Assembly (NCBI GenBank): GCA_046484665.1
Contig: JAWOIN010000069.1
Span: 7,114-71,113 of the forward strand
Length of the DNA stretch: 64,000 bases
Direction: 5' to 3'
From: Gemmatimonadota bacterium
GTDB taxonomy: Bacteria > Gemmatimonadota > Gemmatimonadetes > Palauibacterales > Palauibacteraceae
In this document: positions 1 through 14,556 of the stretch, in pieces
Position numbering within the stretch: position 1 is the stretch's first letter
Layout: each line of letters starts with the position of its first letter
Position numbers and translations under genes: made by a program
Notes under the pieces: generated by a model
What the model was told of the DNA's origin: nothing
The model's input: only the letters and a program-made list of their open reading frames with translations
The model's database searches: none

Positions 1-128
1 GCGTGTTCGAGGCCCTGCGCGGAGCGGAGGCTCAGGCCCCGTAGCCCCCGCGTGTCCCGCCCGGGCGTCGGGCGCCCTGGAACCCGGACGCACCGGGAGC
101 GCGGAGGCGGCTCCCGAGGGAACGGCAA

Positions 129-926
129 CTACCCGACGAGGGCGCTCCGGAGGGCGCCGACGTGAGCGACGAAGTCCCGTTCGACGTCGCCGCCCGAGTC
201 CACCAGCGCGTCGACGTCCAGCAGCCAGCGGGCTCCTTCGGCGGCGGAGTCGCCGGAGCCGTCCGGACCGGCTCCGACAGGTTCGGAGACGAAGCTGGAT
301 CCGCCCGCGAGCAGCGCCTCCTCCAGCACGCCGTGGTACTCGTCCGCGGCGAGCATGAACGGGAGGGCGCCCTGCGAGGCGACGTACTCGGCGACGGATC
401 CGTCCGTATCCCGCTCCCCGATCGATCCATCCGCCGCCGGAAGCTCCACCCAGCGCTCTCGCCCCCCGCGCACGATCCGACCGAGCGGATACAGGCGGCA
501 GACGAGCGGCCGATCCGCGTGCACCGTGCAGCCCGAATCGCCAAGGAATACGCACGTCCCGACGGCCGAGCGCCGGAGCGCCACGCGGTCCGCATCGACG
601 AAGCGGTCGATGAAGTCCCCGGTGGAGAGGCCGAGGCCGCGCGCCAGCCGGAGGACCTCGTACGGGTTCACCTGGATCACCCGGTCCCGGCAGCAGCGGT
701 TGCAGCGGCCGCATCGGTAGGAGAACGCCGCCCCGGCGGTGCCTGCGTCCGGGAGACCCTCGCCGGCGAGAGGCAGAGTTTGCGGGCCGCCGGGCTCGCG
801 GTCGGCCCGCCGCGCGGTCAGCGGACTCCTCCGTCCAGGGGCGTGAACTCGATCTTCATCTGCCGGCTCTCCGTGAACCCCAGCGTGGAGAGCGGCAACC
901 GCTCGTCTGCGGCCAGGTCGTGCCAC
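129..926 (-). CDS. YkgJ-family cysteine-cluster protein (CxxCxxCC motif); start codon uncertain
   Basis: ORF track; motif CGRCNRCC followed by GTCVFLGDSGC...CRLYPLG typical of UPF0153/YkgJ zinc/iron-chelating domain. Confidence 0.5.
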   Translation of the reverse strand: MARPGRRRAVAALHAGVHGEPADEDRVHAPGRRSPLTARRADREPGGPQTLPLAGEGLPDAGTAGAAFSYRCGRCNRCCRDRVIQVNPYEVLRLARGLGLSTGDFIDRFVDADRVALRRSAVGTCVFLGDSGCTVHADRPLVCRLYPLGRIVRGGRERWVELPAADGSIGERDTDGSVAEYVASQGALPFMLAADEYHGVLEEALLAGGSSFVSEPVGAGPDGSGDSAAEGARWLLDVDALVDSGGDVERDFVAHVGALRSALVG

Positions 927-1411
927 TTCAGCTGCACGGATGTCGGCCTCCCTCCGAGATACCGGGTCGCCGCATCGCCGACCTCGATCGTCTCGAGGTG
1001 CCGGTCTCCCGCCCAGAACTTGAGCTGGAACCGGGAGGCCCCCGCAGTCGGCCGGGCCAGCGCCGCGGCGGGCACCCCCAGCGAAAGGGCGAGCGCGGCG
1101 ACGGCCCCGCGGCGAAGTCCCTCCCTGCGGTCGATCGATTCCGCCATTCTTCCCTCCCGCGTGTTCACTCCGCGTCCGCCCGGTCCGGCGGGCGGGTCCA
1201 GACGGTAGAGCGCATTCGCACCTCGACTCCCGCCACGCCCGGACCCGGCCCGGAGCGCCACCGGTCGCGCCGGCCGCGCGAGCGCGGAGCGCGCGGCGTC
1301 GCCGTCACCGCTTCCCGACTTCACGGCCGAACCCACCCGGGTTACCGTGGACGGGAGGCCGAGGGCCCCTTAAGGGTCGATCTCCAGAAGAACCCGAACC
1401 GGAGTGCCGTG

Positions 1412-3076
1412 ATGAGCATCCGCATCGCCGCCGGCGTCATCGCCGGCATCGTTCTCGCATTCCCCCTCGCCTGCGCCCCCGTCGACGACGCGGGCCCCGG
1501 GTCCCGCGCCGACGCGGGCGGGGCGGGCGCGGCGGGCTACGGCGAGCGCGTGGGCGCCGTGGACCTGCCCGCCGGTTGCGCCGACGAGGCCGTGCCGCAC
1601 CTCGAGCGCGGGCTCGCGCTCCTCCACAGCATGACCTACGAGGGGGCCCGCGAGGCGTTCGCCGCCGGCGCCGAGGCCGACCCCGGCTGCGCCCTCGCGC
1701 CCTGGGGCGAGGCGATGAGCTGGATCCACCCCCTGTGGAACGATCCCCCCTCCGCGGAGGCGTTCGCGGCCGGGGCCGCCGCTGTCGAGCGGGCACGCGC
1801 GGCGCGGGCCGGGAGCGCACGGACGGAAGCCTGGATCGACGCCGTCGCCGGCTACTACGAGCCGGACCGCGGCGAGACCGAGCGCCCGAACCTCGCCGCC
1901 TTCGCCGCCGGCTGGAAATCGGCGCACGAGCGGTTCCCCGACGACCCCGAGGCCGCCCTGTTCCGCTCGCTCACCGGTCTCGCCCTCGCCGACCCGTCCG
2001 ACAAGAGCTACGGGGTGCAACTCGCGTCCGGGGCCGTGGCCGAGAGCGTGCTCGCCGCGCACCCCGACCACCCCGGCGCCCACCACTACGTGATCCACTC
2101 CTACGACTACCCGCCGCTGGCCGACCGTGCGGAGGCGGCGGCGCGCGGCTACGCCGACCTGGCGCCGAAGGTGCCCCACGCCCTCCACATGCCCAGCCAC
2201 ATCTTCACCCGGCTCGGCCTTTGGGAGGAGTCGATCGAGTGGAACACGCGCTCTGCGGACGCCGCGAAGGAGCACCCGGTGGAGGGCGCCGTCGCGATGC
2301 ACTACCTGCACGCGCTCGACTACCTGGCCTACGGCCACCTGCAGCGGGCGGAGGACGCGGAGGCCGAGGAAGTCGCGGCGACGATGGCGGAACTCGAGGG
2401 ACCGTTCCAGGTCACCCTCGCCGGCGCCTACGCCCTCGCCGCCGTTCCCGCACGGCTCGCGCTCGAGCGCGAGGTCTGGGATACCGCCGCGGGGCTCGAC
2501 CCGCGCGCCGCCGACTTCCCGTGGGAACGCTTCCCCGCGATGGAAGCGATCGGCTGGTTCGCGAAGGGGATCGGGGCCGCGCGGAGCGGGGACGCCGCCG
2601 GGGGAAACGCCGCCGCGGTCCGGCTCGCCGACCTGCGCGACGCGATCCCGTCCGGCTCCGCCTATTGGGCGACCCAGGTCGAGATCCAGCGACTCGCCGT
2701 GCTCGCCTGGACCCGGCTCGCGGAGGGCGACCGCGACGCCGCGCTCGCGACGATGCGCGAGTCCGCCGACCTCGAGGCCACGACGGAGAAGCACCCGGTC
2801 ACTCCCGGCGAGATCCTCCCGGCGCGCGAGCTGCTGGGCGACATGCTGCGCGAGGCGGGACGTCCCGCGGAGGCGATCGCCGCGTACGAGGCGGCGCTCG
2901 AGCGGAGCCCGAACCGCTTCCGCAGCCTGTACGGAGCAGGCCGCGCCGCGGAGGAGGTCGGAGACCGAGAGGCGGCGGCGGAGTGGTTCGGAAAGCTGCT
3001 CGAGGTCGTGGCCCCGGGCGCCGACGGCCGGCCGGAGATCGCGCACGCGCGGGAGGTGGTCGGGGCGCGCGCCTGA
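1412..3076 (+). CDS. secreted TPR-like repeat protein (signal peptide MSIRIAAGVIAGIVLAFPLACA)
   Basis: In-frame ATG at 1412 inside ORF 920..3076; N-terminal signal peptide; Ala/Leu-rich helical repeats; high GC3 codon bias. Confidence 0.45.
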   Translation: MSIRIAAGVIAGIVLAFPLACAPVDDAGPGSRADAGGAGAAGYGERVGAVDLPAGCADEAVPHLERGLALLHSMTYEGAREAFAAGAEADPGCALAPWGEAMSWIHPLWNDPPSAEAFAAGAAAVERARAARAGSARTEAWIDAVAGYYEPDRGETERPNLAAFAAGWKSAHERFPDDPEAALFRSLTGLALADPSDKSYGVQLASGAVAESVLAAHPDHPGAHHYVIHSYDYPPLADRAEAAARGYADLAPKVPHALHMPSHIFTRLGLWEESIEWNTRSADAAKEHPVEGAVAMHYLHALDYLAYGHLQRAEDAEAEEVAATMAELEGPFQVTLAGAYALAAVPARLALEREVWDTAAGLDPRAADFPWERFPAMEAIGWFAKGIGAARSGDAAGGNAAAVRLADLRDAIPSGSAYWATQVEIQRLAVLAWTRLAEGDRDAALATMRESADLEATTEKHPVTPGEILPARELLGDMLREAGRPAEAIAAYEAALERSPNRFRSLYGAGRAAEEVGDREAAAEWFGKLLEVVAPGADGRPEIAHAREVVGARA

Positions 3077-3150
3077 GCCCGGGTCCGGCCCGGGCCGGCC
3101 CGGTCCCGGCGCGTTGACCTCGCGATGACGGCCGCGCCCCGCGACGGGGC

Positions 3151-4151
3151 GTGGTTGACCCGAACTCGTTCCGCCGTTCCGCCGCCCCGCGCGACGAAAC
3201 CCGCGCACTCGACGCGATGCGGAGGGAGATCCGCGCCCGGCAGATGAGCCTGCTGACCGAGGAGGCCTACGTCTCCTGGGCGCGGCGCTACCTCCGCTTT
3301 CACGACGGCCGCGATCCGCGCGAACTCGGCGGCGAGGGAATCGCCGCCTTCCTCACCCACCTCGCCGTTCGCCGAAACGTCGCGCCGTCCACCCAGAGCC
3401 ATGCCTCGAGCGCCCTGCTCTTCCTGTATCGCGAGGTGCTCGGGACCGAGGTGAACCCACCGAAGGGCGTGGTGCGCCCGATGGCGCCGCGCCGGCTTCC
3501 CGTCGTGCTCACCCCCTCGGAGGTCCGGGCCGTGCTCGGTCAGATCCGGGGGGCGCACCGGCTCGCCGCGACCCTCCTGCACGGGAGCGGGCTCCGCCTG
3601 CTCGAGTGTCTCCGGCTGCGCGTCAAGGACGTCGACTTCGAGCGCCGCGAGATCCTCGTGCGGGCCGGCAAAGGCGACCGGGACCGCGTCACCATGCTGC
3701 CCGACAGCGCCCGTACCGCGCTGGGTCGGCACCTGCGCCGCGTGCAAGAGCAGCACGAGCGCGATCTCGCCGCCGGCGCCGGATGGGTAGTCCTGCCCCG
3801 CGCGCTCACGCTCAAGTACCCGAACGCCGGCCGCGAGTGGGCCTGGCAGTGGGTGTTTCCCGCCACACGGATCCACGCGGGGTCGGCTACCGGGCGGCGC
3901 TTCCGATACCACCTCCACGAGTCCGCCGTCCAGCGCGCCGTCAAGGAGGCCGTGCAGCGGAGCGCGTCCCGAAGAGGGCCACATGCCACACCTTCCGGCA
4001 CTCCTTCGCCACCCACCTGCTCGAGAGCGGCTACGACATCCGGACCGTCCAGGAGCTGCTCCGGCACCGTAGCGTCCGCACCACGATGGTCTACACCCAC
4101 GTCCTGAACCGCGGCGGCCTCGGTGTCCGCAGTCCCGCCGACGCGTTCTGA
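3151..4151 (+). pseudogene. intI: integron integrase IntI (tyrosine recombinase), interrupted by apparent 1-nt frameshift near 3961-3970
   Basis: Frame 1 ORF 3151..4107 carries [32 protein letters not shown] and the IntI-specific insert [21 protein letters not shown]; frame 0 ORF 3606..4151 carries [36 protein letters not shown]. The junction reads ..AVQRSASRR in one frame and ..[15 protein letters not shown] in the other. Confidence 0.85.
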
Positions 4152-4390
4152 CCGTCGGGCGGGAAGCCGATCCCCGCCCGCCCCCTCTCCCGCGTCCAGC
4201 CTCCTGCGACTTCTCATGCCCCTGCGGCGTCCCGAAGTGGCGCCCTGCGCGAACCGCGCCTAGATTTTTCCACGCGCCCCACATCACCGAATTGCGTGCG
4301 GTTCGGCACATCGCCCGCACCGCTCGCAAGTCAACATCCCGGCCCGGGCTCCGTGCATCAGCCGCGTACCGTGCGGGAGGGGGCTGGGGT

Positions 4391-4416
4391 GTTGGGATGT
4401 CTGCTAGGAGTTAGAT
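4391..4416 (+). other. candidate attI / first cassette junction (GTTAGAT at 4410-4416, GTTGGGA at 4391-4397) in lower-GC spacer downstream of intI
   Basis: GTTRRRY-type box in the only lower-GC stretch between intI stop and first cassette ORF; position inferred, not proven. Confidence 0.3.
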
Positions 4417-4444
4417 GGCTATCAAACTCTGGGGCTAGACGGGA

Positions 4445-4822
4445 ATGAAGCGGAATATGGACTTGATCAGAGAGCTGCTTCTCTACTTCGAGGAGAAACC
4501 AGACGCCGCAGCCGTTGAGCCCTCTGAAATCTCGATTCCTGGTCCCGATTCCGACGATATCGCCTATCACATAGTCCTCTTGTCGGAAGCCGGCCTCCTC
4601 AGTCATGAGCGAGTCGAAAGCACGACGACGCCGAGCCGTCTCATCAAGTCGATACCATTCCGGCTTACTTGGGAAGGGCACGAGTTCCTCGATTCCGCTC
4701 GAAACCAGTCCACCTGGGAGCGTGCGAAGACCACCCTTGCCGCCAAGGGACTTGCCACTAGCTACGAACTCCTTAAGGCCCTCCTACTCAGCTACGGCAA
4801 ACAGCAGCTCGGTCTCAGCTAG
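4445..4822 (+). CDS. DUF2513-like hypothetical protein (cassette 1)
   Basis: ORF track; N-terminal MDLIRELLLYFEE pattern recalled from DUF2513 family; followed directly by attC. Confidence 0.5.
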   Translation: MKRNMDLIRELLLYFEEKPDAAAVEPSEISIPGPDSDDIAYHIVLLSEAGLLSHERVESTTTPSRLIKSIPFRLTWEGHEFLDSARNQSTWERAKTTLAAKGLATSYELLKALLLSYGKQQLGLS

Positions 4823-4833
4823 TGCGACACGCC

Positions 4834-4919
4834 ATCTAACACACGCCTGGAGCTGACGCGGAGGTGACTGTGGGCGGACGAATGATCGTGTCGCGCAGCT
4901 CAGGCGCTCACCGTCAGGT
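4834..4919 (+). repeat. attC site 1 (R'' ATCTAAC 4834-4840 ... R' GTCAGGT 4913-4919)
   Basis: Shares inner core GCCTGGAGCTGACGCG ... CGCGCAGCTCAGGCG with other attCs; imperfect inverted repeat with bulged bases. Confidence 0.7.
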
Positions 4920-4936
4920 CTGCGGGTAGGGGAGGA

Positions 4937-5260
4937 CTACTTGGCCGGGACCTCGCGGGACCGTTTGCGACGAGGCCGTACGACGTCGAGCACCGCATCC
5001 GGGTGTCGCGCTGCTACCCGCAGCAGCACGCGCGCCGGCCCCCGGGGGGTGCGCCGGCCCTGCTCCCAGTTCTGGAGCGTGCGTACGCTGATTCCGAGCA
5101 ACGAGGCGAACTTCTCTTGCGACAGCCCGTACGCCTCCCGAATCGCGGTCACGTCCTTCTCCGGAAGCTCGAAGGTCCGGACTGCCGCCTCCTTCTCTTT
5201 CAGGATCCGGCCGCCCTGGAGCACACTGGCCTCGAGCTCCGCGAACAGGTCCTTCTTCAC
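4937..5260 (-). CDS. higA: HigA-2-like antitoxin, XRE-family HTH (GTG start)
   Basis: ..AIREAYGLSQEKFASLLGISVRTLQNWEQGRRTPRGPARVLL.. HTH; starts 1 nt after overlapping toxin stop; real start GTG at 5260, not the 230-aa track ORF. Confidence 0.8.
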   Translation of the reverse strand: MKKDLFAELEASVLQGGRILKEKEAAVRTFELPEKDVTAIREAYGLSQEKFASLLGISVRTLQNWEQGRRTPRGPARVLLRVAARHPDAVLDVVRPRRKRSREVPAK

Positions 5261-5574
5261 CTGTATTCCTCCTCGACGATCCGGTGCAGGACCTTCTTCT
5301 GCTCCGGGCTCAGATCGCTGCGCTCGTTCTTGACGAAGACCATGAGCATGAGGATCGTCTCGTGAGACCCGGCCCAGTAGTAAATGACGCGTACGCCGCC
5401 GCGCTTGCCCCTGCCCGGGGTACGCCAGCGGATCTTCCGCAGGCCGCCCGCACCCGGAATCAGGCTTCCGGCCTCCGGGTCGGCGGCGAGACGTAGTTGC
5501 AGAAGCCGGTAGCTCTCCGGGTCCAGCAGCTCCTGGACGCGTCGGGAGAAGACCTCCGTCTCCTGAATCAGCAC
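5257..5574 (-). CDS. higB: HigB-2-like toxin (RelE/ParE superfamily, Gp49-like)
   Basis: GAGGLRKIRWRTPGRGKRGGVRVIYYW...ILMLMVFVKNERSDLSPEQKKVL matches HigB-2 signature GTGGLRKIR..GKGKRGG.R.IYY; toxin-first operon order. Confidence 0.85.
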   Translation of the reverse strand: MLIQETEVFSRRVQELLDPESYRLLQLRLAADPEAGSLIPGAGGLRKIRWRTPGRGKRGGVRVIYYWAGSHETILMLMVFVKNERSDLSPEQKKVLHRIVEEEYR

Positions 5575-5582
5575 CCGATAGC

Positions 5583-5599
5583 ATACGCCATTGGCGTAT
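5583..5599. promoter_or_regulatory. perfect 8-1-8 palindrome ATACGCCA-T-TGGCGTAT immediately upstream of higB start; candidate operator
   Basis: Seen directly in sequence; located 9 nt upstream of the GTG start of higB on the minus strand. Confidence 0.4.
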
Positions 5600-5620
5600 T
5601 CCCGACAAGGAGTGTTCGAG

Positions 5621-5709
5621 ACCTAACACTCGCCTGGAGCTGACGCGATGGGTTCAACGTGCAGACAACAGACAATCCAGGCGCGCAGCTCAGGCGTTCA
5701 CCGTTAGGC
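5621..5709 (+). repeat. attC site 2 (R'' ACCTAAC ... inner repeats GCCTGGAGCTGACGCG / CGCGCAGCTCAGGC ... R' GTTAGGC 5703-5709)
   Basis: R''/R' complementary 6/7; inner repeats complementary with two unpaired bases (extrahelical-base pattern). Confidence 0.8.
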
Positions 5710-5739
5710 GGCAACGTGGACGACACACGTGGAGACGCG

Positions 5740-6141
5740 ATGAGAATAGCCCTGGCACTCTTGGCTACGCTGTTGATCATGTACGTGGTCACCTTCGTGA
5801 TCTACGGCGTCGTAGCCGCCGTAACAGGTCTGGAACCGCCGCAGGATGGCTCGCCAGCGCGGTTCCTTCTCGGTGTCCTGATTACCAAGCTCGGCCTGGC
5901 CCTGGGGTTCGTGTTGTTGTTCGCCCTGGCGCGTGAAGTGTGGCAAGCCCGCTGGCCGGTCTATGCTCTCATCTGGTGGGTTCTCTTCGCTGTTTCGGAA
6001 ATCGGGCAGGCCGTCGCGCCGGGGTACTCGTGGCTTGAGGCCGCGGGCGGGATCATGGCCGAGGCGGTCTACTGCCCCCTTTCCGCGTGGGCGACGGCGC
6101 GCCTGCTGGGTGGCCGCGGCGCGGGACGGGTTGCCGCCTAA
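5740..6141 (+). CDS. small polytopic membrane protein, unknown function (cassette 3)
   Basis: ATG 5740 in frame of ORF 5659..6141; three hydrophobic helices; TAA stop lies inside R'' GCCTAAC of next attC. Confidence 0.5.
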   Translation: MRIALALLATLLIMYVVTFVIYGVVAAVTGLEPPQDGSPARFLLGVLITKLGLALGFVLLFALAREVWQARWPVYALIWWVLFAVSEIGQAVAPGYSWLEAAGGIMAEAVYCPLSAWATARLLGGRGAGRVAA

Positions 6142-6249
6142 CTAGCGCATGCAGCCGACATCCGGCTCAGTCACTCGCGCTGCATTCGGCCTGACGGCCG
6201 GCAGCGCTCGCGCCATCGCCGGCTGCGGCTGATGCGCGATTCGTTAGGC
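6136..6249 (+). repeat. attC site 3, different sequence family (R'' GCCTAAC 6136-6142 ... R' GTTAGGC 6243-6249)
   Basis: Perfectly complementary R''/R'; inner repeats GCGCATGCAGCCG / CGGCTGATGCGC complementary with one bulged base. Confidence 0.75.
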
Positions 6250-6306
6250 GGGCCGCGGTGATACTCCGTATACTCTAGGGAGGCATCCATTCATCGGAGA
6301 AACCGC

Positions 6307-6522
6307 GTGAAGAACGAGTTTACGGCGATCATTGAGCAGGACGGAGACTGGTACATCGCCTACTGCCCCGGGATCCCGGGCGCGAATGGGCAGGGACATA
6401 CACGAGATGAGGCGAGGCGAGTCTCGCCGAAGCTATTGCGCTCATTCTCGATGATCGCCGGGAAGACGGCCTGCGAGGGCTTCCTGCGGACGCCGAGCAG
6501 GATACCGTCACGGTCGATTGAA
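6307..6522 (+). pseudogene. hicB: HicB-family antitoxin, frameshifted near 6412-6425
   Basis: MKNEFTAIIEQDGDWYIAYCPGIPGANGQGHTRDEARR in one frame; ESLAEAIALILDDRREDGLRGLPADAEQDTVTVD in another frame ending TGA ~6520-6522. Confidence 0.7.
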
Positions 6523-6709
6523 GCGTAGCGCGCTTCTTCGTCACCGGCGCCGCCATGGCTGCTATCTCAAGCGGGAAGGTAGCTCTCACTCCCTTCGGAT
6601 CAATCCTCAGACGGGCGAAGTGCAGGCGATTCCCAGGCGCGCTGAGATTCCCGATCGCTTGGCACACCGAATCTGCTGCGGCCTCTCAGTACCAGAGCTC
6701 GGCAGGTGA
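6518..6709 (+). CDS. hicA: HicA-family toxin (YcfA-like), TTG start
   Basis: MKRSALLRHRRRHGCYLKREGSSHSLRINPQTGEVQAIPRRAEIPDRLAHRICCGL matches HicA HGC.L.REG.HS..NP.TG...PRH.EIP..LA..IC pattern. Confidence 0.75.
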   Translation: MKRSALLRHRRRHGCYLKREGSSHSLRINPQTGEVQAIPRRAEIPDRLAHRICCGLSVPELGR

Positions 6710-6718
6710 CTCGCAACC

Positions 6719-6807
6719 GCCTGACACGCGCCTGGAGCTGACGCGATGGGTTCAAAGTGCACACGCCAGCCAATCTGGGTGCGCAGCCCAGGCACTGACC
6801 GTTGGGC
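6719..6807 (+). repeat. attC site 4 (R'' variant GCCTGAC ... R' GTTGGGC 6801-6807)
   Basis: Same inner core as attC 1/2; begins 10 nt after hicA stop. Confidence 0.7.
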
Positions 6808-6822
6808 GGACGAAGCTCTGAA

Positions 6823-7569
6823 ATGACCATTCTCCTCCTGTTCACCTTGTATGCGATCGCCCTGTCAGCCGCGCTGGCACTGACAGGACACCGATCGCAG
6901 ACCTCTCCCTCGGGGGCGGCACCTCGCCACCCTCCCAGGCGGCTGCTGGTTGTGGGAGCGACCGGCGGTACTGGTCGTCAGCTTCTCGTGCAAGCGCTGG
7001 AGCGAGGTTACGAGGTCACGGCATTCGTCCGAGATCCTTCACGGCTTTCGATCGCTCATCGTCGACTGACCGTCGTGCGGGGTGATGTGCTCGACTTCGA
7101 TTCCGTAGACACTGCGATGCGCGGACAAGATGCGGTGCTGTCGGCTCTTGGCCACAAGCGGTTCTTCTACCCGACTCGCATCCTCTCGGAGGGCACTCGC
7201 AATATCCTGCGGGCCATGGAGAGCAAAGGCGTCCGGCACCTGGTGTGCGAGACCGCTATGGGAATCGGAGACAGTGCCGGGCGAATGGGCCTGTACTACA
7301 CGCTCTTCGTCATTCCGGTGATTCTGCCGTTCTACTTCTGGGACAAGACCCGGCAGGAACGGGTGATCGCGGGGAGTAATCTGGAATGGGTGATCGTGCG
7401 ACCCGGGATGCTGACCAACGGCGCCAGGCGGAGTTCGTATCGTCATGGTCGTCGCATCGGCAGCTTCCTCCGGACCGTGCGGATCTCCCGTGCCGACGTG
7501 GCGGACTTCATGCTCAACCAGCTGGAGTCCGACACGTACGCCCGTACTGCAGTGGGCGTGTGTTGGTAG
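6823..7569 (+). CDS. NAD(P)H-binding NmrA/SDR-like protein
   Basis: LLVVGATGGTGRQLLVQALERGYEVTAFVRDPSRL Rossmann GxxGxxG motif; ATG 6823 in frame of ORF 6802..7569. Confidence 0.7.
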   Translation: MTILLLFTLYAIALSAALALTGHRSQTSPSGAAPRHPPRRLLVVGATGGTGRQLLVQALERGYEVTAFVRDPSRLSIAHRRLTVVRGDVLDFDSVDTAMRGQDAVLSALGHKRFFYPTRILSEGTRNILRAMESKGVRHLVCETAMGIGDSAGRMGLYYTLFVIPVILPFYFWDKTRQERVIAGSNLEWVIVRPGMLTNGARRSSYRHGRRIGSFLRTVRISRADVADFMLNQLESDTYARTAVGVCW

Positions 7570-7677
7570 AGCAGCCGGTATCTCGCCGCCGCCCGACAAG
7601 CCGCCGCAGCCGCCGAGCGGCGCGGCTTCGCCCGGCTGATTCCAGATGACCGTGAGCGCCGCTCGCGTCCGAGCGGC

Positions 7678-8223
7678 ATGGCGTCAGGCATCGCCGTTCA
7701 TCAGCGGAACTGGCGAAGAATGAGTCTGGAGGCCGACCAGCGCTCGTTGCTCTCCCGGTATCTGCAGGGGCCGGCGTTGCTCGAGCAGGCGGTTGCTGAC
7801 TTGAGCGACGCCGACCTCGATGCTCCTCCATCGGACGGCGGCTGGACCATTCGGCAGATCGTTCACCACGTCGTTGATGGGGATGATCTCTGGATGACGT
7901 GCATCAAGGCTGCACTCGGGAACGAGGAAGACGACTTCACTTTGGAGTGGTACTGGCAGCTACCGCAGGACACTTGGGCCGAGCGCTGGGGCTATGCACA
8001 CAGACCACTCGACGTTTCCCTGGCTCTGTTCGGGGCGATCCGAGCTCACATCGCCCAACTGGTGGAACGAGCACCTGACGGATGGAGTCGATCGATGCGT
8101 GTCCGGACGCCGCAAGGAACCGAGCGCGTGTCGGTCCGCGCTGTGCTCGAGATGCAGGCTGATCACGTATCGCATCACGTCGAGAGGATTGCCGCCATTC
8201 GCGCGGAGCGTGGTGACGCCTGA
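7678..8223 (+). CDS. DinB/YfiT-like (DinB_2) metal-dependent hydrolase-fold protein
   Basis: HHVVDGDDLW ... HxxxH-type motifs; TGA stop overlaps R'' of following attC. Confidence 0.65.
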   Translation: MASGIAVHQRNWRRMSLEADQRSLLSRYLQGPALLEQAVADLSDADLDAPPSDGGWTIRQIVHHVVDGDDLWMTCIKAALGNEEDDFTLEWYWQLPQDTWAERWGYAHRPLDVSLALFGAIRAHIAQLVERAPDGWSRSMRVRTPQGTERVSVRAVLEMQADHVSHHVERIAAIRAERGDA

Positions 8224-8306
8224 CACGCGCCTGGAGTTGACCCGGTAAACATCGCGGCGAGGAAGCGGAACATCTGGTCGCCCAGCTCAGGCGCTCGCCG
8301 TGGACG
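8218..8306 (+). repeat. attC site 5 (R'' GCCTGAC 8218-8224 ... degenerate R' GTGGACG 8300-8306)
   Basis: Core CGCCTGGAGTTGACCCGG ... CCCAGCTCAGGCGCTCGCCG related to other attCs. Confidence 0.6.
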
Positions 8307-8328
8307 TGCAGGCGGTCCCGTGTCTAGT

Positions 8329-8347
8329 GTATATTGGCGTCATATAC
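8329..8347. promoter_or_regulatory. AT-rich inverted repeat GTATAT-N7-ATATAC upstream of brnT; candidate promoter/operator
   Basis: Seen in sequence between attC 5 and brnT ATG (8355). Confidence 0.3.
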
Positions 8348-8354
8348 TCCTGCC

Positions 8355-8660
8355 ATGAACGGGTCCTCGGAGCAGCTGGAGGCGTGTACCGGCTTCGAAT
8401 GGGACGTCGGCAACGTCGACAGGAACCGGGAGAGTCACGGGGTCTCGAATGCCGAGTGCGAGCAGGTCTTCTTCCAGCGCCCGCTCCTCATCGCCCCTGA
8501 TCTCGAGCATTCCCACGAGGAGCCTCGCTTCGCTGCCCTCGGGCGCATGGCCGATGGCCGGCGACTCACGATCGTGTTCACGATCCGCGGCACGTTGATC
8601 CGCGTGATCTCGTCACGGCTGATGAGCCGCCGCGAGCGGAGGGTCTATGAGCAAGCGTAA
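8355..8660 (+). CDS. brnT: BrnT-family toxin (DUF497)
   Basis: FEWDVGNVDRNRESHGVSNAECEQVF...RLTIVFTIRGTLIRVISSR matches BrnT F.WD..N...HGI pattern; overlaps brnA start. Confidence 0.8.
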   Translation: MNGSSEQLEACTGFEWDVGNVDRNRESHGVSNAECEQVFFQRPLLIAPDLEHSHEEPRFAALGRMADGRRLTIVFTIRGTLIRVISSRLMSRRERRVYEQA

Positions 8661-8967
8661 GAAGCAGCCCAGAGTGCGTGAGCCCGTCCCGGAGTTCCGC
8701 TCCGAGGAAGAGGAGCGGGAGTTCTGGGCCGAGCACGACGTGGTCAACTACTTCGACTGGGAGAACTCCGTTCCGGGCTCGTTCCCCGCTCTCAAGCCCT
8801 CGACCCAGACGATCTCGCTCCGGCTGCCCAAGGCGCTCCTGGAGGACCTCAAGGCGCTCGCCAACGAACGCGATGTCCCCTACCAGAGCCTCCTCAAGGT
8901 CTACCTCGCCGAGCGCGTAGCCCGGGAGCGCGACCGCCGACGCCGACGCACCGAGGCTGACGTCTAA
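8647..8967 (+). CDS. brnA: BrnA-family antitoxin (CopG-like)
   Basis: EEEEREFWAEHDVVNYFDWEN...ISLRLPKALLEDLKALANERDVPYQSLLKVYLAERV; TAA stop overlaps R''. Confidence 0.75.
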   Translation: MSKRKKQPRVREPVPEFRSEEEEREFWAEHDVVNYFDWENSVPGSFPALKPSTQTISLRLPKALLEDLKALANERDVPYQSLLKVYLAERVARERDRRRRRTEADV

Positions 8968-9048
8968 TCCGCGCCTGGAGCTGACACGGAGGGTGACGGT
9001 GGACAGACATGCTCGGTCGTCGCGCAGCCCGGGCGCTCACCGTTAGGC
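8962..9048 (+). repeat. attC site 6 (R'' GTCTAAT ... R' GTTAGGC 9042-9048)
   Basis: Core CGCCTGGAGCTGACACGG ... CGCGCAGCCCGGGCGCTCACC. Confidence 0.75.
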
Positions 9049-9088
9049 GGTACTGAAAGGTTCCCGCGGAAACGAGGGGCTAGCAACC

Positions 9089-9436
9089 TTGGCTCGCGAC
9101 CCAGTTGACGTGGCTCAGGCACAGTTGGATGCGTACAACGCAGGCGACCTTGAGGCATTTCTCGAGTGCTACGCCGAGGAAGCGCAGATCGAGGACGGCG
9201 ACGGGAACGTCCTCATGGGTGATCGCGAGGCGATGCGCTTCTTCTATGAGACGCTCTTCAGCCAGAGTCCGGATCTGCACTGTGAACTCCGGTCTCGGAT
9301 CGACGTCGGCCGCTTCGTTGTGGACGAGGAGTACGTGACCGGAGCGCACCTGGAGGGTCTCCCAACCGAGATCCACGCGGCCGTGGTCTATCGCATCGAA
9401 GACGGGTTCATCCGGCACGTCCGCTTCCTAGTGTAG
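9089..9436 (+). CDS. NTF2-like (SnoaL/ketosteroid isomerase-like) small protein, TTG start
   Basis: ORF track; LDAYNAGDLEAFLECYAEEA..VVYRIEDGFIRHVRFLV pattern typical of NTF2-fold family. Confidence 0.55.
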   Translation: MARDPVDVAQAQLDAYNAGDLEAFLECYAEEAQIEDGDGNVLMGDREAMRFFYETLFSQSPDLHCELRSRIDVGRFVVDEEYVTGAHLEGLPTEIHAAVVYRIEDGFIRHVRFLV

Positions 9437-9443
9437 GTGTACC

Positions 9444-9573
9444 GCCTAGCACGCGCCTGGAGCTGACGGCGCGCGTGCCTGGCACGAGAGGGGTTGACTG
9501 ACTTGGTTCAGATCACTGGCGCGGCGCGCTGCCGGGGCGGCGAATGCCGCAGCTCAGGCGCTCGCCGTTATGC
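9444..9573 (+). repeat. attC site 7, long form (R'' GCCTAGC 9444-9450 ... R' GTTATGC 9567-9573)
   Basis: Core ACGCGCCTGGAGCTGACGGCGCGC ... CGCAGCTCAGGCGCTCGCC; ~130 bp. Confidence 0.65.
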
Positions 9574-9878
9574 CGACTCCCCGCATGGATAAGGACGAAG
9601 CCAGGGCAATACTCGCCGAGTGCCTCGCTTCGTACCGGGCTATGACCTATCCAGAGCTCGCGTTGCGAGTCGACACCGTCGAGACCGCTGAGATCCGGGC
9701 TCCGTCCGGAGTGCAGTATCAGCTTGAAGTCCAGTTCTTCTGGGATTCCAAGCCGAATCACGAGGTCAGAGTTATCGGTTCGGTCGACGACGGGGGTTGG
9801 CGGGCTTTTGTTCCCCTGTCCGACGACTTCATCCTGGCGCCGGATGGCACCTTCGTAGGCGAGCAGCCAGCAGATTGA
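9570..9878 (+). CDS. hypothetical protein (cassette 8), ATG created inside R' box GTTATGC
   Basis: ORF track; no recognisable motif; coding GC3 bias. Confidence 0.45.
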   Translation: MPTPRMDKDEARAILAECLASYRAMTYPELALRVDTVETAEIRAPSGVQYQLEVQFFWDSKPNHEVRVIGSVDDGGWRAFVPLSDDFILAPDGTFVGEQPAD

Positions 9879-9879
9879 C

Positions 9880-9967
9880 AAGCGCTGGCAGCTGACGCGG
9901 ACTGCAGTTGTGGCGTCAGACGCGCCGGCGATCGTGGCTGCGCAGCGGAAGCGCAAGACCGTCAGTC
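9880..9967 (+). repeat. attC site 8, degenerate (GCTGGCAGCTGACGCGG ... GCTGCGCAGCGG ... R' GTCAGTC 9961-9967)
   Basis: Retains GCAGCTGACGCGG / CGCAGCGG halves of the family core; R'' not clear. Confidence 0.4.
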
Positions 9968-9980
9968 GGCTTGAGCGGAC

Positions 9981-10769
9981 ATGATGGACGCGGGAACCTG
10001 CGATCGGTGGTATCAGACGCCGCGCGGCCGGTGGATCGGGCAACGCGAGGTAGCGTTGCTCCTTGGAGAGCTGCAACTTCATCCGGGCGAATCGCTGCTC
10101 GATGTAGCGTGTGGCACCGGCTTCTTCACGCGTGCTCTTGCGTCCGCGATGGGAGCGCCGGTCACCGGCGTCGATATCAGCCCAGAATGCGTGGCGTATG
10201 CGCGTCGTCGAGACACGGACAAGGTGTCCTACGAGGTCGCCGACGCACGTGCCCTGCCTTACGGAGCCGCGAGCTTCGACGTCGTCGTGTCGATCGCGGC
10301 ACTGTGCTTAATCGAAGAGGAACGCGCCGCTGTCCGCGAGATGTGTCGCGTCGCGCGCCGCCGGGTAGCCATCGGTCTACTGAATCGCCGGAGCCTCCTT
10401 TGGCTCCGGAAGGGTAGGAACGGTGGCCGCGGAGGCTACCGCGGTGCTCGCTGGCACACGACCGGCGAGGCCGCGGACCTGCTCAAGGGTCTGCCGGTGC
10501 AGCTTTCTCGGGTGCGGACCGCCATACACCTTCCGGGTGACGGGCGAATCGCGCGGGTCATGGAGCGCCTATGGCCGCCGTGGCTCCACACCGGCGCGTT
10601 CATGCTCGTGGTGGCAGACGTTGCTGCGGTTACCGATGCGCCACCTGACAGCAGCGTGCAGCGGACGGCGCTTCGCGCTGTCGCTGATGCTGAGCGTCAG
10701 GCGGCGTACCTTGAAATGGTACGAGTCCGTATTCGAACCGCGACGACGCTGCCACCCGGGTCAGTGTGA
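9981..10769 (+). CDS. class I SAM-dependent methyltransferase
   Basis: [16 protein letters not shown]...VTGVDIS...FDVVVS motifs I-III. Confidence 0.75.
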
Positions 10770-10779
10770 GGAGGCGTCA

Positions 10780-11271
10780 ATGAGTCCGAAGAAGGCCACG
10801 CAGAAATCCGGCGAGAGCACCACCGCGATCAACAGGAAGTCCAAGGGATTCACGGACGAGGAACGAGCTGCAATGAAGGAGCGCGCCCAGGAGCTGAAGG
10901 CGGAAGCAAGCGGCGGCGCGCGCGCGAGCAAGAACAGGGCGGACGGCGAAAGAGACGTGCTCGCGAAGATCGCCGAGATGCGGGAACCGGATCGCGCCAT
11001 GGCCAAGCGGTTTCATGCTGTCATCCTGGCCAGCGCGCCGACGCTCTCGCCGAACACCTGGTACGGGATGCCCGCGTACGCCAAGGGCGGCAAGGTCGTC
11101 TGCTTCTTCCAAAGCGCGCAGAAGTTCAAATCGAGGTATGCGACGTTCGGCTTCAGTGACGAGGCGAATCTCGACGAAGGCGCCATGTGGCCGACCTCTT
11201 TCGCACTGAAGGACTTGACCGCCGCCGAAGAGGCGAGGATCGGCGCTCTCGTGAGGAGAGCGGTGAGCTGA
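10780..11271 (+). CDS. DUF1801 (YdhG-like) domain protein
   Basis: [32 protein letters not shown] typical DUF1801 core; ATG 10780 preceded by GAGGAGG. Confidence 0.7.
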
Positions 11272-11542
11272 GGAGCGATCTCGGCATCGGGCCCCGACCA
11301 GGGGCCTTCGGTAGCTCCGACAGACCCGGCGATATCATTCTCACTGCTGAAAACGAGGATTCGGCATGGGCACGCCAGCCCATGCAATCGGTCGAGTAGC
11401 GTGAGGCAATCGGGAGAGCCGGCGTCACGGCACCGCCCGAAGTGGCGATGGCCGACCAGGTCCATCCGGTTCCGGCCTCACGGGTCCACGCTTTGGTCTG
11501 GCTTTGGCGGGAGCAGCGAGCGCCACCAGGGCAGTGAGCGCC

Positions 11543-11609
11543 GCCTGACCGGCGACTTCACCTGCCGACGGCCGCCCGGCAACCGCAGCTCCTTCGAGCA
11601 CAGGTGAGC
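11543..11609 (+). repeat. degenerate attC remnant (R''-like GCCTGAC ... CAGCTCCTTCGAGCACAGGTGAGCGG)
   Basis: Resembles 5' and 3' halves of array attCs (compare CAGCTCAGGCGCTCACCGTTAGGCGG). Confidence 0.3.
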
Positions 11610-11656
11610 GGCCCCGCTCGAAAGCCCCATTGCATCAGATGGGAGGACGCGCAGCG

Positions 11657-12169
11657 ATGGATTCGTCGGCACTCGAGTTCCTGCTTCGGTTCAATATCTG
11701 GGCGAACCGGCGTTTGTTGGATGCTATCGAGAGCCTGTCGGGAAACGCGGATCTGACTCCGATCCGAGACATGGTCGCGCACATTGTCGCGGCAGAGTGG
11801 ATCTGGATGGAACGGCTGGAGGGCGTCAGCCCGGGCGAAGTTCCGGCCTGGGTCGACGCAGAGGGACTGGAGCCCCTCCGGGAGCGGTTGGCGGTGGTCG
11901 AGACACGCAGAGCTGCCTTTCTGGAGACTCTGGATGAGAGCGGGACAAGGCGTGTGGTGGAGTTTCGGCTCCTCAACGGCAGTAGCGGAACGGCGGAAGT
12001 CTGGCAGCTGATGGTCCACGTCATCAATCACTCCACATATCATCGTGGGCAGCTGGCGAGACTGTTGCGCGAGGCCGGGGTGACCCCACCCACCACAGAC
12101 CTGATCTCCTTCTGTCCGGAGGGAGGCCAGTATCGGAGTCGAGAGTCGCGACGATCGGACTGCGAATGA
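11657..12169 (+). CDS. DinB-family protein (DinB_2)
   Basis: FNIWANRRLLDAIESL ... HVINHSTYHRGQLARLLREAG characteristic DinB C-terminus. Confidence 0.7.
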   Translation: MDSSALEFLLRFNIWANRRLLDAIESLSGNADLTPIRDMVAHIVAAEWIWMERLEGVSPGEVPAWVDAEGLEPLRERLAVVETRRAAFLETLDESGTRRVVEFRLLNGSSGTAEVWQLMVHVINHSTYHRGQLARLLREAGVTPPTTDLISFCPEGGQYRSRESRRSDCE

Positions 12170-12395
12170 TCGTCGTCCTGAATGGACCGCCTCGCATCGG
12201 AGAGGGGACGCTCGCAGAAGCGCTCGCCGAAAACATCGAGAAGTGCGCCACCTGCCGGGGGTCTGCGGCAGCAGAGCAGGAGTCGCGGGTCCGGAGCCGT
12301 TCGCCTTGCAGCCCGCCGCTCCGGGCAGGCATCATGCTCACGCAGCGGAACGGCATAGTCGGCAGATACGCGACAGCAGGGGAGGTCACTGCCGA

Positions 12396-12746
12396 ATGAA
12401 GAGCTACCTCCTTGTGCTGAACGAGGGCCCCTACGGAAACGAGCGTTCGTACAACGCGCTGCGTTTCGCCGCCGCGCTCCGCAAGCAGCCCGACGCGCTC
12501 GTGCGCGTCTTCCTGCTCGGCGAGGCCGCGTTCTGCGCCCTGAAGAACCAGGAAACGCCCCAAGGAATCTACAATATCGGACGGATGCTCCGGATCCTGA
12601 CGACTCACGGCGCCGTGGCCACGTGAGGCTCCTGCGCCAAGGCCCGCGGGATCGGGCCCGAGCAGCTCCTGGAGAAAGTGGAACTCGCGAGCATGGAGCA
12701 GCTGGCCGGCTGGGCTCACGAGAGCGATCAGGTTCTCGTGTTCTGA
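12396..12746 (+). CDS. DsrE/DsrF/YchN-like protein with in-frame TGA (12624-12626); candidate selenoprotein or nonsense pseudogene
   Basis: MKSYLLVLNEGPYGNERSYNALRFAAAL..HGAVAT-TGA-GSCAKARGIGPEQLLEKVELASMEQLAGWAHESDQVLVF; family-conserved C-terminus continues in same frame after TGA; GGAGG 8 nt upstream of ATG. Confidence 0.6.
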
Positions 12747-12756
12747 TTTCACCACG

Positions 12757-13743
12757 ATGTCCGGCACGGGACGCGAGCTGGCGCTCACCGCTTCATGGAG
12801 CCCCGGGCCCTTCGCATCCGATGCCTTCCATCCGCCGTTGCCAGCATGCAGCGGATTCTCCGCGCTCCCGGTGTCCACGGGAGTCGAGATGGAGCTCGAC
12901 ATGACGGAGGATTGCAAGCGAGCATCGGATCTGGCAGGTCGCTCGCGCGGGGGCTGGAAGCTGGCCCTCGGCGAGCTCGCCATCGTATCGCTCGGCGTCC
13001 TGATCGCTCTCTGGGCCGACCAGGCGATCCAGGCCCGCCAGGAGGCCGCCAGGGAGGTCGGTTACCTCGAGCGCCTCCAGACGGATGTGCGCGCGGACAT
13101 CCGCTCCCTGCGATTCAGCGCCGACCAGGCGCGGAACCGGCTCGCGATCACTCGGCAGGTCGATGCCTGGCTCCACGACCCGGACGGAAGGCCCGATCCC
13201 GACTCACTGGTCTTGAGCGCGCACTTCGCAGGCGTCACGTTCCCGCCCACGATCTCGACGTTCACGATCGACGAGCTGAGGTCCACGGGTGACCTCGGCC
13301 TCCTGCGGAATCAGGCGCTCAAGAGACAGATCGCCGACTACTACAACCAGATCGGCCTGCAGATCGACCGGTGGATCGCCTGGGGTGACGAGGGGCTCAC
13401 CGAGACGTACTTCCGCGAGCTGGCGTTCATCGTGGACCCTGAGCTCAGGATTCGGGCGGGCACGTTCGACCCGGCGCTGATGCAGCGCTTCCTGAGCGCC
13501 TCCGGCGGAGACGCGCCGTCCAGATACGCCGAGATCCAGGGAGCCGCACCGGAGATCGGAGCCACGCTCGCCGACGCGGACCGGATCCTCGGTCGGATGC
13601 GGGCGCGTCCGAACTACGAGGGCTATCTCCGCGACAGCATGTACTGGGCGCATCTGTCGGCCCAGCTGCTGGACGGCGTCGTCCTCACCGCCGAGGAGCT
13701 GGAGGCGACGATCGCGGAGGAGCTCGAGGCTCTCGGCCGATAG
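12757..13743 (+). CDS. hypothetical membrane-anchored protein, unknown function (start uncertain, possibly 12888/12900)
   Basis: ORF track; one TM (LALGELAIVSLGVLIALWA) then soluble domain; strong GC3 bias. Confidence 0.45.
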   Translation: MSGTGRELALTASWSPGPFASDAFHPPLPACSGFSALPVSTGVEMELDMTEDCKRASDLAGRSRGGWKLALGELAIVSLGVLIALWADQAIQARQEAAREVGYLERLQTDVRADIRSLRFSADQARNRLAITRQVDAWLHDPDGRPDPDSLVLSAHFAGVTFPPTISTFTIDELRSTGDLGLLRNQALKRQIADYYNQIGLQIDRWIAWGDEGLTETYFRELAFIVDPELRIRAGTFDPALMQRFLSASGGDAPSRYAEIQGAAPEIGATLADADRILGRMRARPNYEGYLRDSMYWAHLSAQLLDGVVLTAEELEATIAEELEALGR

Positions 13744-13790
13744 CGCCGCGAGCTCACCGATCACGGCCCCCTGTTCGCGCGAGCCGACCC

Positions 13791-14552
13791 GTGAGCCGAG
13801 AACGACGCGCCGTCCTCCCGGAGATGCCGCGACGGGCATGCGAGCGGCTTCGAGACGGGCTCGTGGAGATTCTGGGGCCGGACCTCGTCGGGCTCTGGGC
13901 GTACGGCGCCGAGACCCAGCCAGATCGCCCGGCACGCCTCGGGGATCTCGACGTCCACGCGGTCTTCGCGCGCCCGCCCGCGCCCGGCGTCGCCCGCGCG
14001 ATCGCAGCGCTGCAGTCCCGCTCCGCGCGTGAGTTCGGCGTCGAGTGGGACGCCTGGTACATCGCGGAGCACGACGCCCGGAGCGTAACGCCGCCCCGGC
14101 ACGTGCTGCAGCCACACCTCGTCGACGGCGCGTGGGCGCTGCACCGGGCCCACTGGTTGGCAGGGGCTTTCGTTTCCCTCCACGGCGCCGAGCCCCCGGA
14201 GCTCGTGCCGCCGCCTTCCTGGCCCGAGCTGCTGGATGCCCTGTGCCGGGAGCTCGCCTTCATCGCGAGCCTGCTCGGACGCGGGAGGGCTGGGACCGCC
14301 GAGATCGCCTACTGCGTGTGCAACGCGTGCCGGGTCCTCTACAGCGTGAAGCACCGGGACGTGGTCGTCTCGAAGCGGGCCGCCTCGAGCTGGGCTCTCG
14401 GGAGCGCCCCGGCCGCCTGGCGGCAGGCGATCGAAGCCGCGGTGCGGGTCTACGACGACGCGGAGGTCGGCGGTGATGATGCGGTACTCAGGTCGTCCGC
14501 CGCAGAAATCGTCACGGCGGTGGCGGAGCGGCTGTCCCGCGAGACGAGCTGA
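13791..14552 (+). CDS. nucleotidyltransferase-domain + DUF4111 protein (ANT(3'')/ANT(9) aminoglycoside adenylyltransferase-like)
   Basis: LVGLWAYGAETQPDRPARLGDLDVHAVF (NTase GS..D.D) and C-terminal ..VVSKRAASSWAL.. DUF4111-like motif. Confidence 0.6.
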   Translation: MSRERRAVLPEMPRRACERLRDGLVEILGPDLVGLWAYGAETQPDRPARLGDLDVHAVFARPPAPGVARAIAALQSRSAREFGVEWDAWYIAEHDARSVTPPRHVLQPHLVDGAWALHRAHWLAGAFVSLHGAEPPELVPPPSWPELLDALCRELAFIASLLGRGRAGTAEIAYCVCNACRVLYSVKHRDVVVSKRAASSWALGSAPAAWRQAIEAAVRVYDDAEVGGDDAVLRSSAAEIVTAVAERLSRETS

Positions 14553-14556
14553 GGAG

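Follow-up and report, generated by a model that had tools for sequence, protein, structure and literature searches.

Integrons in which the integrase gene (intI) reads in the same direction as its cassettes have been described as an 'inverted integron-integrase group', in a passage of Cury et al. 2016 (PMC4889954) that cites Boucher 2007. In this group (the Treponema denticola type), intI has the same direction of transcription as the attC sites and the cassette ORFs, and attI lies at the 3′ end of intI. The criteria given for sedentary integrons in Cury et al. 2016 (PMC4889954) are more than 19 attC sites or presence in all genomes of a species, and integrons of the Gemmatimonadota are listed in a 2021 review (PMC8618304). 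An integron with the layout of the T. denticola type is found in the 64,000 nt stretch of DNA analysed here (the window), and extends from intI at 3151 to the end of the tenth attC site at 10702. On balance, the locus is best read as a sedentary chromosomal integron of the inverted type, most likely from the Gemmatimonadota, in which a recent inactivation of the integrase may have left the array frozen.

The integrase gene and the attI region

The integrase gene, a spacer and the crossover core follow one another:

3151–4151, + strand: integron integrase gene intI, interrupted as assembled by a 1 nt deletion at 3964
4152–4409, + strand: intI-attI spacer (attI region), with a GC hairpin at 4156–4180 and a weak terminator-like element at 4247–4269
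4410–4416, + strand: attI crossover core GTTAGAT, with the G|TT point at 4410/4411

The initial annotation placed an IntI-type tyrosine recombinase here. The gene and its identity stand, but its reading frame is not intact, being one base short at 3964. Frame 1 spans 3151–4107 and the catalytic C-terminus is coded in another frame, ending at 4151, leaving the catalytic HxxR, H and Y out of frame; putting back one base makes the R-K-H-R-H-Y set complete. With the frames joined at 3963/3966, the protein is 311 aa long from ATG 3217, or 333 aa from GTG 3151. The closest homologues are called at 333 aa, with their start at the position of GTG 3151.

The repaired protein matches the TIGR02249 'integron integrase' model with 413.7 bits (cutoff 265) over residues 1–310 of 311. 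The XerC and XerD models, which represent the competing assignment named by the initial annotation, give scores far under their cutoffs (139.8 bits against 335, and 130.3 bits against 330), and each of these matches is broken into two stretches that flank the IntI insertion. The best solved relative is VchIntIA (PDB 2a3v, E = 9e-78), and the alignment to it has one single-residue gap, outside the IntI-specific segment LP.AL..KYP.A...W.W..FP. The IntI-specific additional domain is present and ungapped against VchIntIA, while an alignment to XerA leaves residues 175–225 unmatched. Judged by its sequence, the recombinase encoded at 3151–4151 is an integron integrase and not XerC/D.

Contigs or loci of other genomes that carry related intI genes are referred to by number: L001 (from a Gemmatimonadota metagenome-assembled genome, MAG), L002, L003, L004 (Gemmatimonadales), L021 (an Eisenbacteria MAG) and L081 (a 123 kb metagenome contig). 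The closest IntI found by protein search is that of L081 (P0001), which is intact, 333 aa long and 93% identical in protein sequence.

The spacer downstream of intI is 95% identical to that of L081 up to the crossover, where homology stops at GTTAGA (4410–4415); beyond this, the window and L081 carry unlike first cassettes. Blocks of the spacer are partly conserved with L001 and L002, and cassette 1 opens with 9 bases that are complementary to the R″ box of its own attC site. These sequence features mark the core at 4410 as attI, the putative site of IntI action. A reading of 4152–4410 as a first cassette without an open reading frame (ORF), prompted by a 16 nt match of 4148–4163 to the end of attC4, was rejected: there is no attC-type hairpin in 4327–4418 (z = −0.07) and the spacer is conserved in L081 up to 4415, and it is therefore taken as the attI region.

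A scan limited to the E. coli-type consensus found no sigma-70-type promoter (Pc) between 3000 and 4900 in the window, nor did it find one in the corresponding spacers of L001 and L002. A speculative possibility is that transcription starting at the intI promoter reads through into the cassettes of these inverted integrons; if so, cassette expression would be coupled to integrase induction. A block at 4262–4290, TTTAG(A/G)CTGCGCCCC, is common to L001 (~11030–11060) and L002 (~3830–3860), where in L002 it is followed by TATAAT; the copy in the window is degenerate. The block may serve as a promoter or as a binding element for IntI; the consensus promoter scan made no call there. Across the intI stop codon, 16 nt at 4148–4163 (CTGACCGTCGGGCGGG) are 88% like the 3′ end of the fourth attC site and include a core-like heptamer, GTCGGGC, a resemblance that is probably due to chance, with no partner arm or hairpin found.

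The attC sites and their cassettes

Downstream of intI, and only there, ten copies of an attC site (60–130 nt, all in one orientation) are spread over 4834–10702. Their lengths fall within the ~55–140 nt expected for such sites. They share a recurring module, found by reading the sequence and by a direct-repeat search: RYYYAAC-nnnn-GCCTGGAGCTGACGCG ... CGCGCAGCTCAGGCG-nnnnnn-GTTRRRY, with the R″ and R′ boxes at its two ends. The initial annotation had described an array of at least eight attC-bounded cassettes ending at 9967, with palindromes of 86–130 bp. The array and the site architecture stand, while the count rises to ten, the end moves to 10702 (the last site having been missed) and the lower size limit falls to 60 nt.

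Three covariance models of attC were used: R1 was built from the window sites, R2 from 82 sites, and R3 from 122 sites beside the intI genes of 36 other genomes. R3 contains no window sequence, but its training sites were gathered with models seeded from the window. R1 turned up 90 further sites in other intI loci. When run on the 64 kb window, R2 returned the same ten sites and nothing else, and R3 returned ten, all on the minus strand and with E = 2e-13 to 1.7e-4, its next match (E = 0.06) being the opposite strand of one of them. The initial annotation had staked the attC assignment on a covariance model scoring the repeats, and the assignment survives because R3, a model from the sites of other genomes, recovers exactly these ten. 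A gathering search of the whole window and an E-value search of 4100–13000 against Rfam, which has no attC family, gave nothing. Two further candidates were rejected. One, at 11543–11610, has an R″-like GCCTGAC, but its R box is unpaired and it is unscored by R1, R2 and R3; the other, an R1 match at 23421–23526 (23.7 bits), was not reproduced by R2 or R3 and was treated as chance.

The attC sites, identified by the repeat module and R3, all have their top strand on the + strand, and are listed with the cassettes that they close. Recombination takes place at G|TT, so that the first six bases of a cassette derive from its own attC. The strand given is that of the cassette genes, and scores of attC sites are those of R3.

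4411–4913, + strand: cassette 1, a DUF2513 gene at 4445–4822 (PF10711, 95.9 bits); attC1 at 4834–4919, 62.7 bits
4914–5703, − strand: cassette 2, a toxin-antitoxin pair of a RelE-like toxin gene at 5257–5574 and an HTH_3 antitoxin gene at 4937–5263 (Pfam); attC2 at 5621–5709, 64 bits
5704–6243, + strand: cassette 3, a 133 aa membrane-type ORF with ATG at ~5740 and stop at 6141, inside R″; 11/11 match between its own R′ and R″; attC3 at 6136–6249
6244–6801, + strand: cassette 4, a HicB-like gene at 6307–6521 and an overlapping 63 aa partner ORF at 6518–6709; attC4 at 6719–6807, 52.1 bits
6802–7683, + strand: cassette 5, an NAD(P)H-binding/NmrA-like gene running to 7569 (PF13460, 168 bits); attC5 at 7591–7689, 27.8 bits
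7684–8300, + strand: cassette 6, a DinB_2 gene running to 8223 (PF12867), with its stop inside R″; attC6 at 8218–8306, 30.3 bits
8301–9042, + strand: cassette 7, BrnT toxin at 8334–8660 (PF04365) and BrnA/CopG antitoxin at 8647–8967 (PF12441); attC7 at 8962–9048, R″ GTCTAAT, 46.2 bits
9043–9567, + strand: cassette 8, a SnoaL_2/NTF2-like gene at 9089–9436 (PF12680); 10/11 own match; attC8 at 9444–9573 (130 nt), 56.1 bits
9568–9961, + strand: cassette 9, an orphan 102 aa ORF at 9570–9878, 96% identical in L081; attC9 at 9873–9967, 30.6 bits
9962–10696, + strand: cassette 10, a class I methyltransferase gene from 9981 (PF08241), shared with L081; attC10 at 10643–10702 (60 nt), 32.1 bits

In the attC hairpin, an unpaired spacer separates the R box from the L box, and two extrahelical bases sit on the L″ arm. 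When the bottom strands were folded as DNA, the minimum free energy (MFE) structure was the canonical hairpin for sites 2, 3, 5 and 10, and partly so for site 1; the bottom-strand fold of attC3 has z = −5.7. With the R box forced, sites 1–5, 7, 8 and 10 take the form of R box, open spacer and L box at 0–5 kcal/mol from the optimum. The R′ of attC6 is degenerate (GTGGACG) and its R box is unpaired, and attC9 folds otherwise. Across the sites, the bottom strand was not consistently more stable than the top strand.

Both extrahelical bases, for which bottom-strand folding had been proposed as a check, were found on the expected arm: two single-base bulges lie on the 3′ (L″) arm, the opposite arm bearing 5′-AAC-3′. 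The distal bulge is a T in the window, and a T in 55 of the 82 sites of the window and its relatives combined. The proximal bulge is a C in the window and G or C in the relatives. In attC sites as described, the extrahelical bases are close to L″, the distal T is conserved and the spacing is 6 bp (PMC5027507); the spacing here is compatible with a 6 bp stem, since two Cs stand side by side and the bulged C is one of them. For the ten window sites, the named structure leaves 86.5% of positions paired, compared to 28–39% in slid registers, with 10 compensatory pairs. Over 82 sites (the window and 23 other loci) the figures are 90.7% paired and 18 of 22 pairs compensatory, in an alignment fitted to the model and so favouring the structure. 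R3, the slid-register pairing and the covariation all agree on the attC architecture, and at the sequence level the ten repeats are genuine attC sites. In L021, at 14627–15671, three attC matches score identically and a fourth nearly so, the four being spaced ~316 nt apart, which suggests tandemly duplicated mini-cassettes.

The R″ box with five flanking bases was compared with the start of its own cassette (76 of 110 positions matching) and with that of the next cassette (65 of 110); random assignment of partners reached 76 in 34 of 200,000 trials. Cassettes 1, 3, 6 and 8 match their own R″ at 9–11 of 11 positions. Cassette 2 is ~85% identical in nucleotide sequence to a cassette in the array of L001, and the identity falls to background exactly at 4914 and 5703. 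The ten cassettes are bounded exactly by cores of the G|TT type. The sequence comparisons thus point to the cassettes being discrete mobile units.

Nine of the ten cassette gene sets are on the + strand, like the attC top strands and intI, in agreement with the co-orientation first proposed. The predicted contents (toxin-antitoxin pairs, DUF, NTF2-like, NmrA-like and DinB-like genes) were largely recovered by Pfam, but stop codons overlap R″ in only four cassettes (3, 6, 7 and 9) and not in the other six. The ORFs of cassettes 3 and 9 have no family match, and the ORF of cassette 10 reads through attC10 to 10769; the equivalent attC in L081 is at 14451–14510. A PADLOC scan of the cassette proteins gave nothing but a generic methyltransferase-domain match. 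The HicB-like gene at 6307–6521 seems to call for a 1 nt correction of its frame near 6415. Weak HicB_lk/UPF0150 matches (E = 0.003) are obtained with the repaired product and none with the ORF as written; GC content at third codon positions (GC3) gives no clear support for a frame shift at this place.

Layout was surveyed in the 80 best IntI loci of a species-representative genome set, in 42 of which attC sites were detected. In 35 of these the attC sites lie downstream of intI and co-oriented with it, as in the window, and in seven they lie upstream, in the classical divergent arrangement. Co-oriented loci were those of Gemmatimonadota, Acidobacteriota, Rokubacteria/Methylomirabilota, Eisenbacteria, Elusimicrobia, Thermoleophilia, Coriobacteriaceae, Ignavibacteria and some delta-proteobacterial MAGs; loci with the divergent layout belong to Beta-/Rhodocyclales, Nitrospinota, Anaerolineae, Verrucomicrobiae and one delta-proteobacterial MAG. 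Co-orientation had been presented as a minority layout, which is true for culture-based surveys but not among the relatives of this IntI. In a rough neighbour-joining tree (VchIntIA as root, no bootstrap) the co-oriented integrases form one cluster, with the seven divergent ones outside, and the window IntI groups with those of L001 and L004. Among named proteins, those nearest to it belong to Gemmatimonadota and Candidatus Palauibacterales. With both the closest IntIs and the attC types being those of Gemmatimonadota MAGs, the proposal of a non-proteobacterial host is borne out, and the host is most likely, from these sequence relationships, a member of the Gemmatimonadota.

Cassette exchange and the state of the integrase

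The window and L081 were compared by blastn, which gave the following blocks:

window 1–4415, L081 6846–11265: 94.9% identity, ending at the attI core GTTAGA
window 9548–12771, L081 13356–16577: 96.4% identity, starting in the R′ end of attC8
window 14616–17681, L081 17994–21002: 85.4% identity over 14616–15046 and 96.7% over 15104–17681

Between attI and the end of attC8, the window carries cassettes 1–8 and L081 carries three unrelated cassettes, the first two of which open with a sequence complementary to their own R″. The attC sites of L081 number five in total; both genomes have cassettes 9 and 10 and an attC-less tail. The breakpoints of the rearrangement fall exactly on recombination cores. 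These alignments show that the attI-proximal end of the array turned over after the split from the L081 lineage. The pattern, which is that expected of insertion and excision at this end, shows that the platform worked after the lineages had separated. Since the array has been remodelled recently relative to the 95% identical L081, any inactivation of the integrase is either young or an artefact.

Synteny with L081 holds for the genes around intI, extending several kb to either side, and L003 is syntenic in part. Two small genes at 166–717 (+) and 821–1369 (−) have no family match but share 67% protein identity with genes upstream of intI in L003, and a TPR gene (1370–3076 region) lies between them and intI in both the window and L081. 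The integron neighbourhood is considered conserved because these upstream genes recur in L003 and L081. ORFs at 45–1208 and 614–3076 were discarded as off-frame shadows of the two small genes. A second variable spot is seen past the tail of the integron, where 1.8 kb of the window (12772–14615) faces an unrelated 1.4 kb of L081 (16578–17993). It holds a 328 aa ORF without family match and a nucleotidyltransferase gene with an AadA_C domain, and there are no attC sites at its breakpoints, 12772 and 14615.

When the intI DNA was aligned with its five homologues (L001–L004 and L081), exactly one frame-breaking difference was found, at 3964. The window reads GAGC-GCGTCCCG where L081 has GAGCGGCGTCCCG, the missing G falling in a GG run; the unbroken GG form at 3963–3964 would be AGCGGCGTC. 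GC3 swaps frame at the deletion, dropping from 0.91 to 0.63 in one frame and rising from 0.51 to 0.92 in the other. Programmed −1 frameshifting at 3964 was rejected, as the sequence has no slippery heptamer. The repaired IntI departs from the usual residue at three sites with a conservation of at least 95% (Q62H, Y122H and G283R). These were counted on the side of a real lesion but dropped as a test for a pseudogene, three being no outlier among relatives that span 0 to 13.

From the integron paradigm, IntI would bind the folded bottom (minus) strand of each attC hairpin, recombination of attI with attC at G|TT would insert circular cassettes beside attI, and recombination between attC sites would excise them. 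If the lesion is real, the array would be frozen unless integrase were supplied in trans; its three toxin-antitoxin cassettes may then keep it in place, and erosion of its recombination cores may be setting in.

We lean, with modest confidence, towards a real and recent inactivation of intI. The main competitor is that the same inverted chromosomal integron is fully functional, the missing G being a sequencing or assembly error and IntI normal; this is a serious possibility, though one with less than even chances. The indel rate against L081 is low, which counts against an artefact: the alignment of ~10 kb has ~405 substitutions but no more than eight indels. Two of these are 1 nt indels, the one at 3964 and one at 4181 in the intI-attI spacer. 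Three measure 6 or 9 nt and keep the frame, the 9 nt one within the TPR gene; the statement on frame covers these three, and the remaining three are 2 nt indels (window 90, 12764 and within 14616–15046). Likewise, none of nine non-integron ORFs scanned had a domain split between neighbouring ORFs, and six of the nine match families, most across the whole profile.

The attC cores also bear on the choice. Non-canonical core triplets are found in R′ of sites 1, 5, 6, 9 and 10 (5/10) and in R″ of sites 4–10 (7/10), whereas related arrays have 2/73 and 3/73, respectively (Fisher P = 1.6e-4 and 3e-6), an over-representation that does not favour a fully functional integron. The variants are mostly G|TC/GAC in place of G|TT/AAC and may represent erosion or a tolerated variant.

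Several observations weigh against our preferred reading and are, for the most part, those that speak for a working integrase. The loss of one G from a short homopolymer, GG to G, is also what a fault in assembly or base calling would look like. Elsewhere the gene is intact and codon-biased, with a coding-frame GC3 of 0.91 and every motif kept, as if under selection; its three deviations at conserved positions lie within the 0 to 13 of its relatives; and the gene of L081 is intact at 93% protein identity. The attI-proximal cassettes have turned over recently. The non-canonical cores of attC9 and attC10 occur in L081 as well, where intI is intact, and G|TC cores may simply be tolerated because cassettes 6 and 10 carry G|TC/GAC pairs compensated on both arms. 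That the IntI lineage of the Gemmatimonadota may recombine at G|TC (bottom GAC) cores besides G|TT is a speculative and rather unlikely idea, but if true it would relax the near-universal requirement for 5′-AAC-3′. A second possible 1 nt frameshift, in the HicB-like antitoxin gene of cassette 4, could hardly be tolerated by a cell with an active toxin, if the shift were real. Lastly, the E. coli-type consensus scan found no Pc promoter, and the host assignment is based on the labels of relatives and not on a marker-gene phylogeny.

A mobile integron, carried by a transposon, plasmid or other mobile element within the contig, is very improbable. The GC content of the window is 72–75% up to 4150, 63.9% over 4411–10696, 64.4% over 10697–12750 and ~70% beyond, so that the cassettes lie about 7–10% below their flanks (69–75%); this speaks for such an element, as does the sharing of cassettes across genomes. 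However, intI itself has a host-like GC content of 72%, the flanking genes are the same in L081 for several kb on each side and partly in L003, related integrons lie in contigs of 123 kb to 1.5 Mb, and no transposase or Tn402-type genes were seen adjoining the integron. The syntenic flanks and the homogeneous, lineage-specific attC family, which is typical of sedentary integrons, are indirect support for a sedentary chromosomal status, although the attC count of ten compares with the more than 19 of Cury et al. 2016.

It is barely conceivable, and effectively refuted, that there is no integron and an XerC/D- or phage-type recombinase lies by chance beside palindromes like repetitive extragenic palindromic elements: high-GC genomes are rich in palindromic intergenic repeats and five of the ten bottom strands lack the canonical hairpin as an unconstrained MFE fold, but the protein scores far above the cutoff of the integron-integrase model and far below those of XerC and XerD, the repeats occur only downstream of intI in a single orientation, their RYYYAAC/GTTRRRY cores and bulges on the expected arm co-occur with intI in 42 other loci, and the breakpoints lie exactly on cores.

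Neighbouring sequence and comparison with described integrons

The last attC site is followed by a stretch in which no attC was detected by R1, R2 or R3, nor was any found in the corresponding tail of L081:

10703–12771, + strand: attC-less tail with DUF1801-like and DinB genes, a fragment of a P-loop gene, and a DsrE/TusD-like gene that contains an in-frame TGA (Pfam/NCBIfam)

The tail is 96% conserved in L081 and has a GC content of 64.4%, compared to 63.9% for the cassettes; it may consist of decayed cassettes or be ordinary flanking sequence. A 77 aa ORF at 12166–12399 matches only the first 33 residues of the Gar/GrdA-type P-loop ATP-binding family (167 aa) and looks like a truncated gene remnant. 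The DsrE/TusD-like gene (12399–12746) has an in-frame TGA at 12624–12626, at the position of the active-site Cys (T-[TGA]-G-S-C), and the read-through product matches TusD over 2–117 of 127 and TusC over 3–116 of 116. A GGCCCG-n6-CGGGCC hairpin 17 nt past the TGA folds no better than shuffled sequence, and the same 76 aa truncated product is called in L081, consistent with the same stop. The TGA is either a selenocysteine codon or a nonsense mutation. No tRNA genes were found in the 64 kb window. Far from the integron, a small gene at 51313–51584 has 68% protein identity to a cassette gene in the L004 array (L004 19207–19467) and is followed by a terminator-like hairpin only, with no attC; it is thus a cassette-type gene that sits outside the integron.

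As an integron of a non-proteobacterial lineage the locus is clean and well delimited, and two natural genomes that are ~95% identical give comparative proof that cassettes have turned over. The inverted layout is the norm in a large IntI clade from phyla of soil, sediment and groundwater (Gemmatimonadota, Acidobacteriota, Rokubacteria/Methylomirabilota, Eisenbacteria, Elusimicrobia and some Actinobacteriota), and lineage-specific attC families help to assign metagenomic cassettes to hosts. The locus may have been caught as its integrase is lost, or appears lost. The general picture of integron biology is unchanged, both Gemmatimonadota integrons (PMC8618304) and integrases of the inverted type (PMC4889954) having been recorded before; the evidence of cassette exchange is unusually direct, and would not surprise specialists.

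Among described systems, the inverted group shares its layout with this locus, with attI at the 3′ end of intI. The differences are that the host here is a high-GC, soil/groundwater-type member of the Gemmatimonadota and not a spirochaete, that the attC family with its GCCTGGAGCTGACGCG and CGCGCAGCTCAGGCG boxes is lineage-specific, and that intI is frameshifted. Decayed integrons, such as those with intI pseudogenes of the Xanthomonas type, or the attC-site clusters without an integron-integrase (CALIN) near intI pseudogenes (Cury 2016), likewise have an array beside a lesioned intI and off-consensus cores, but here there is a single lesion in an otherwise intact gene.

The likeness to VchIntIA and the superintegron of V. 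cholerae extends to the integrase fold, the IntI-specific domain, the homogeneous attC family and the presence of toxin-antitoxin cassettes. The attC sites of both have an R box, an open central spacer, an L box and extrahelical bases. The attC bottom strands, which lie on the template for the leading strand in 25 of 30 sedentary integrons (PMC5371416), probably do so here as well, from a cumulative GC skew that climbs on the + strand from 6 to 62 kb of this one 64 kb window. The proximal extrahelical base is usually C here and G in V. cholerae, and half of the cores here are G|TC and not G|TT. In Vibrio, intI is divergent from an array of ~180 cassettes, whereas here it is co-oriented with an array of ten.

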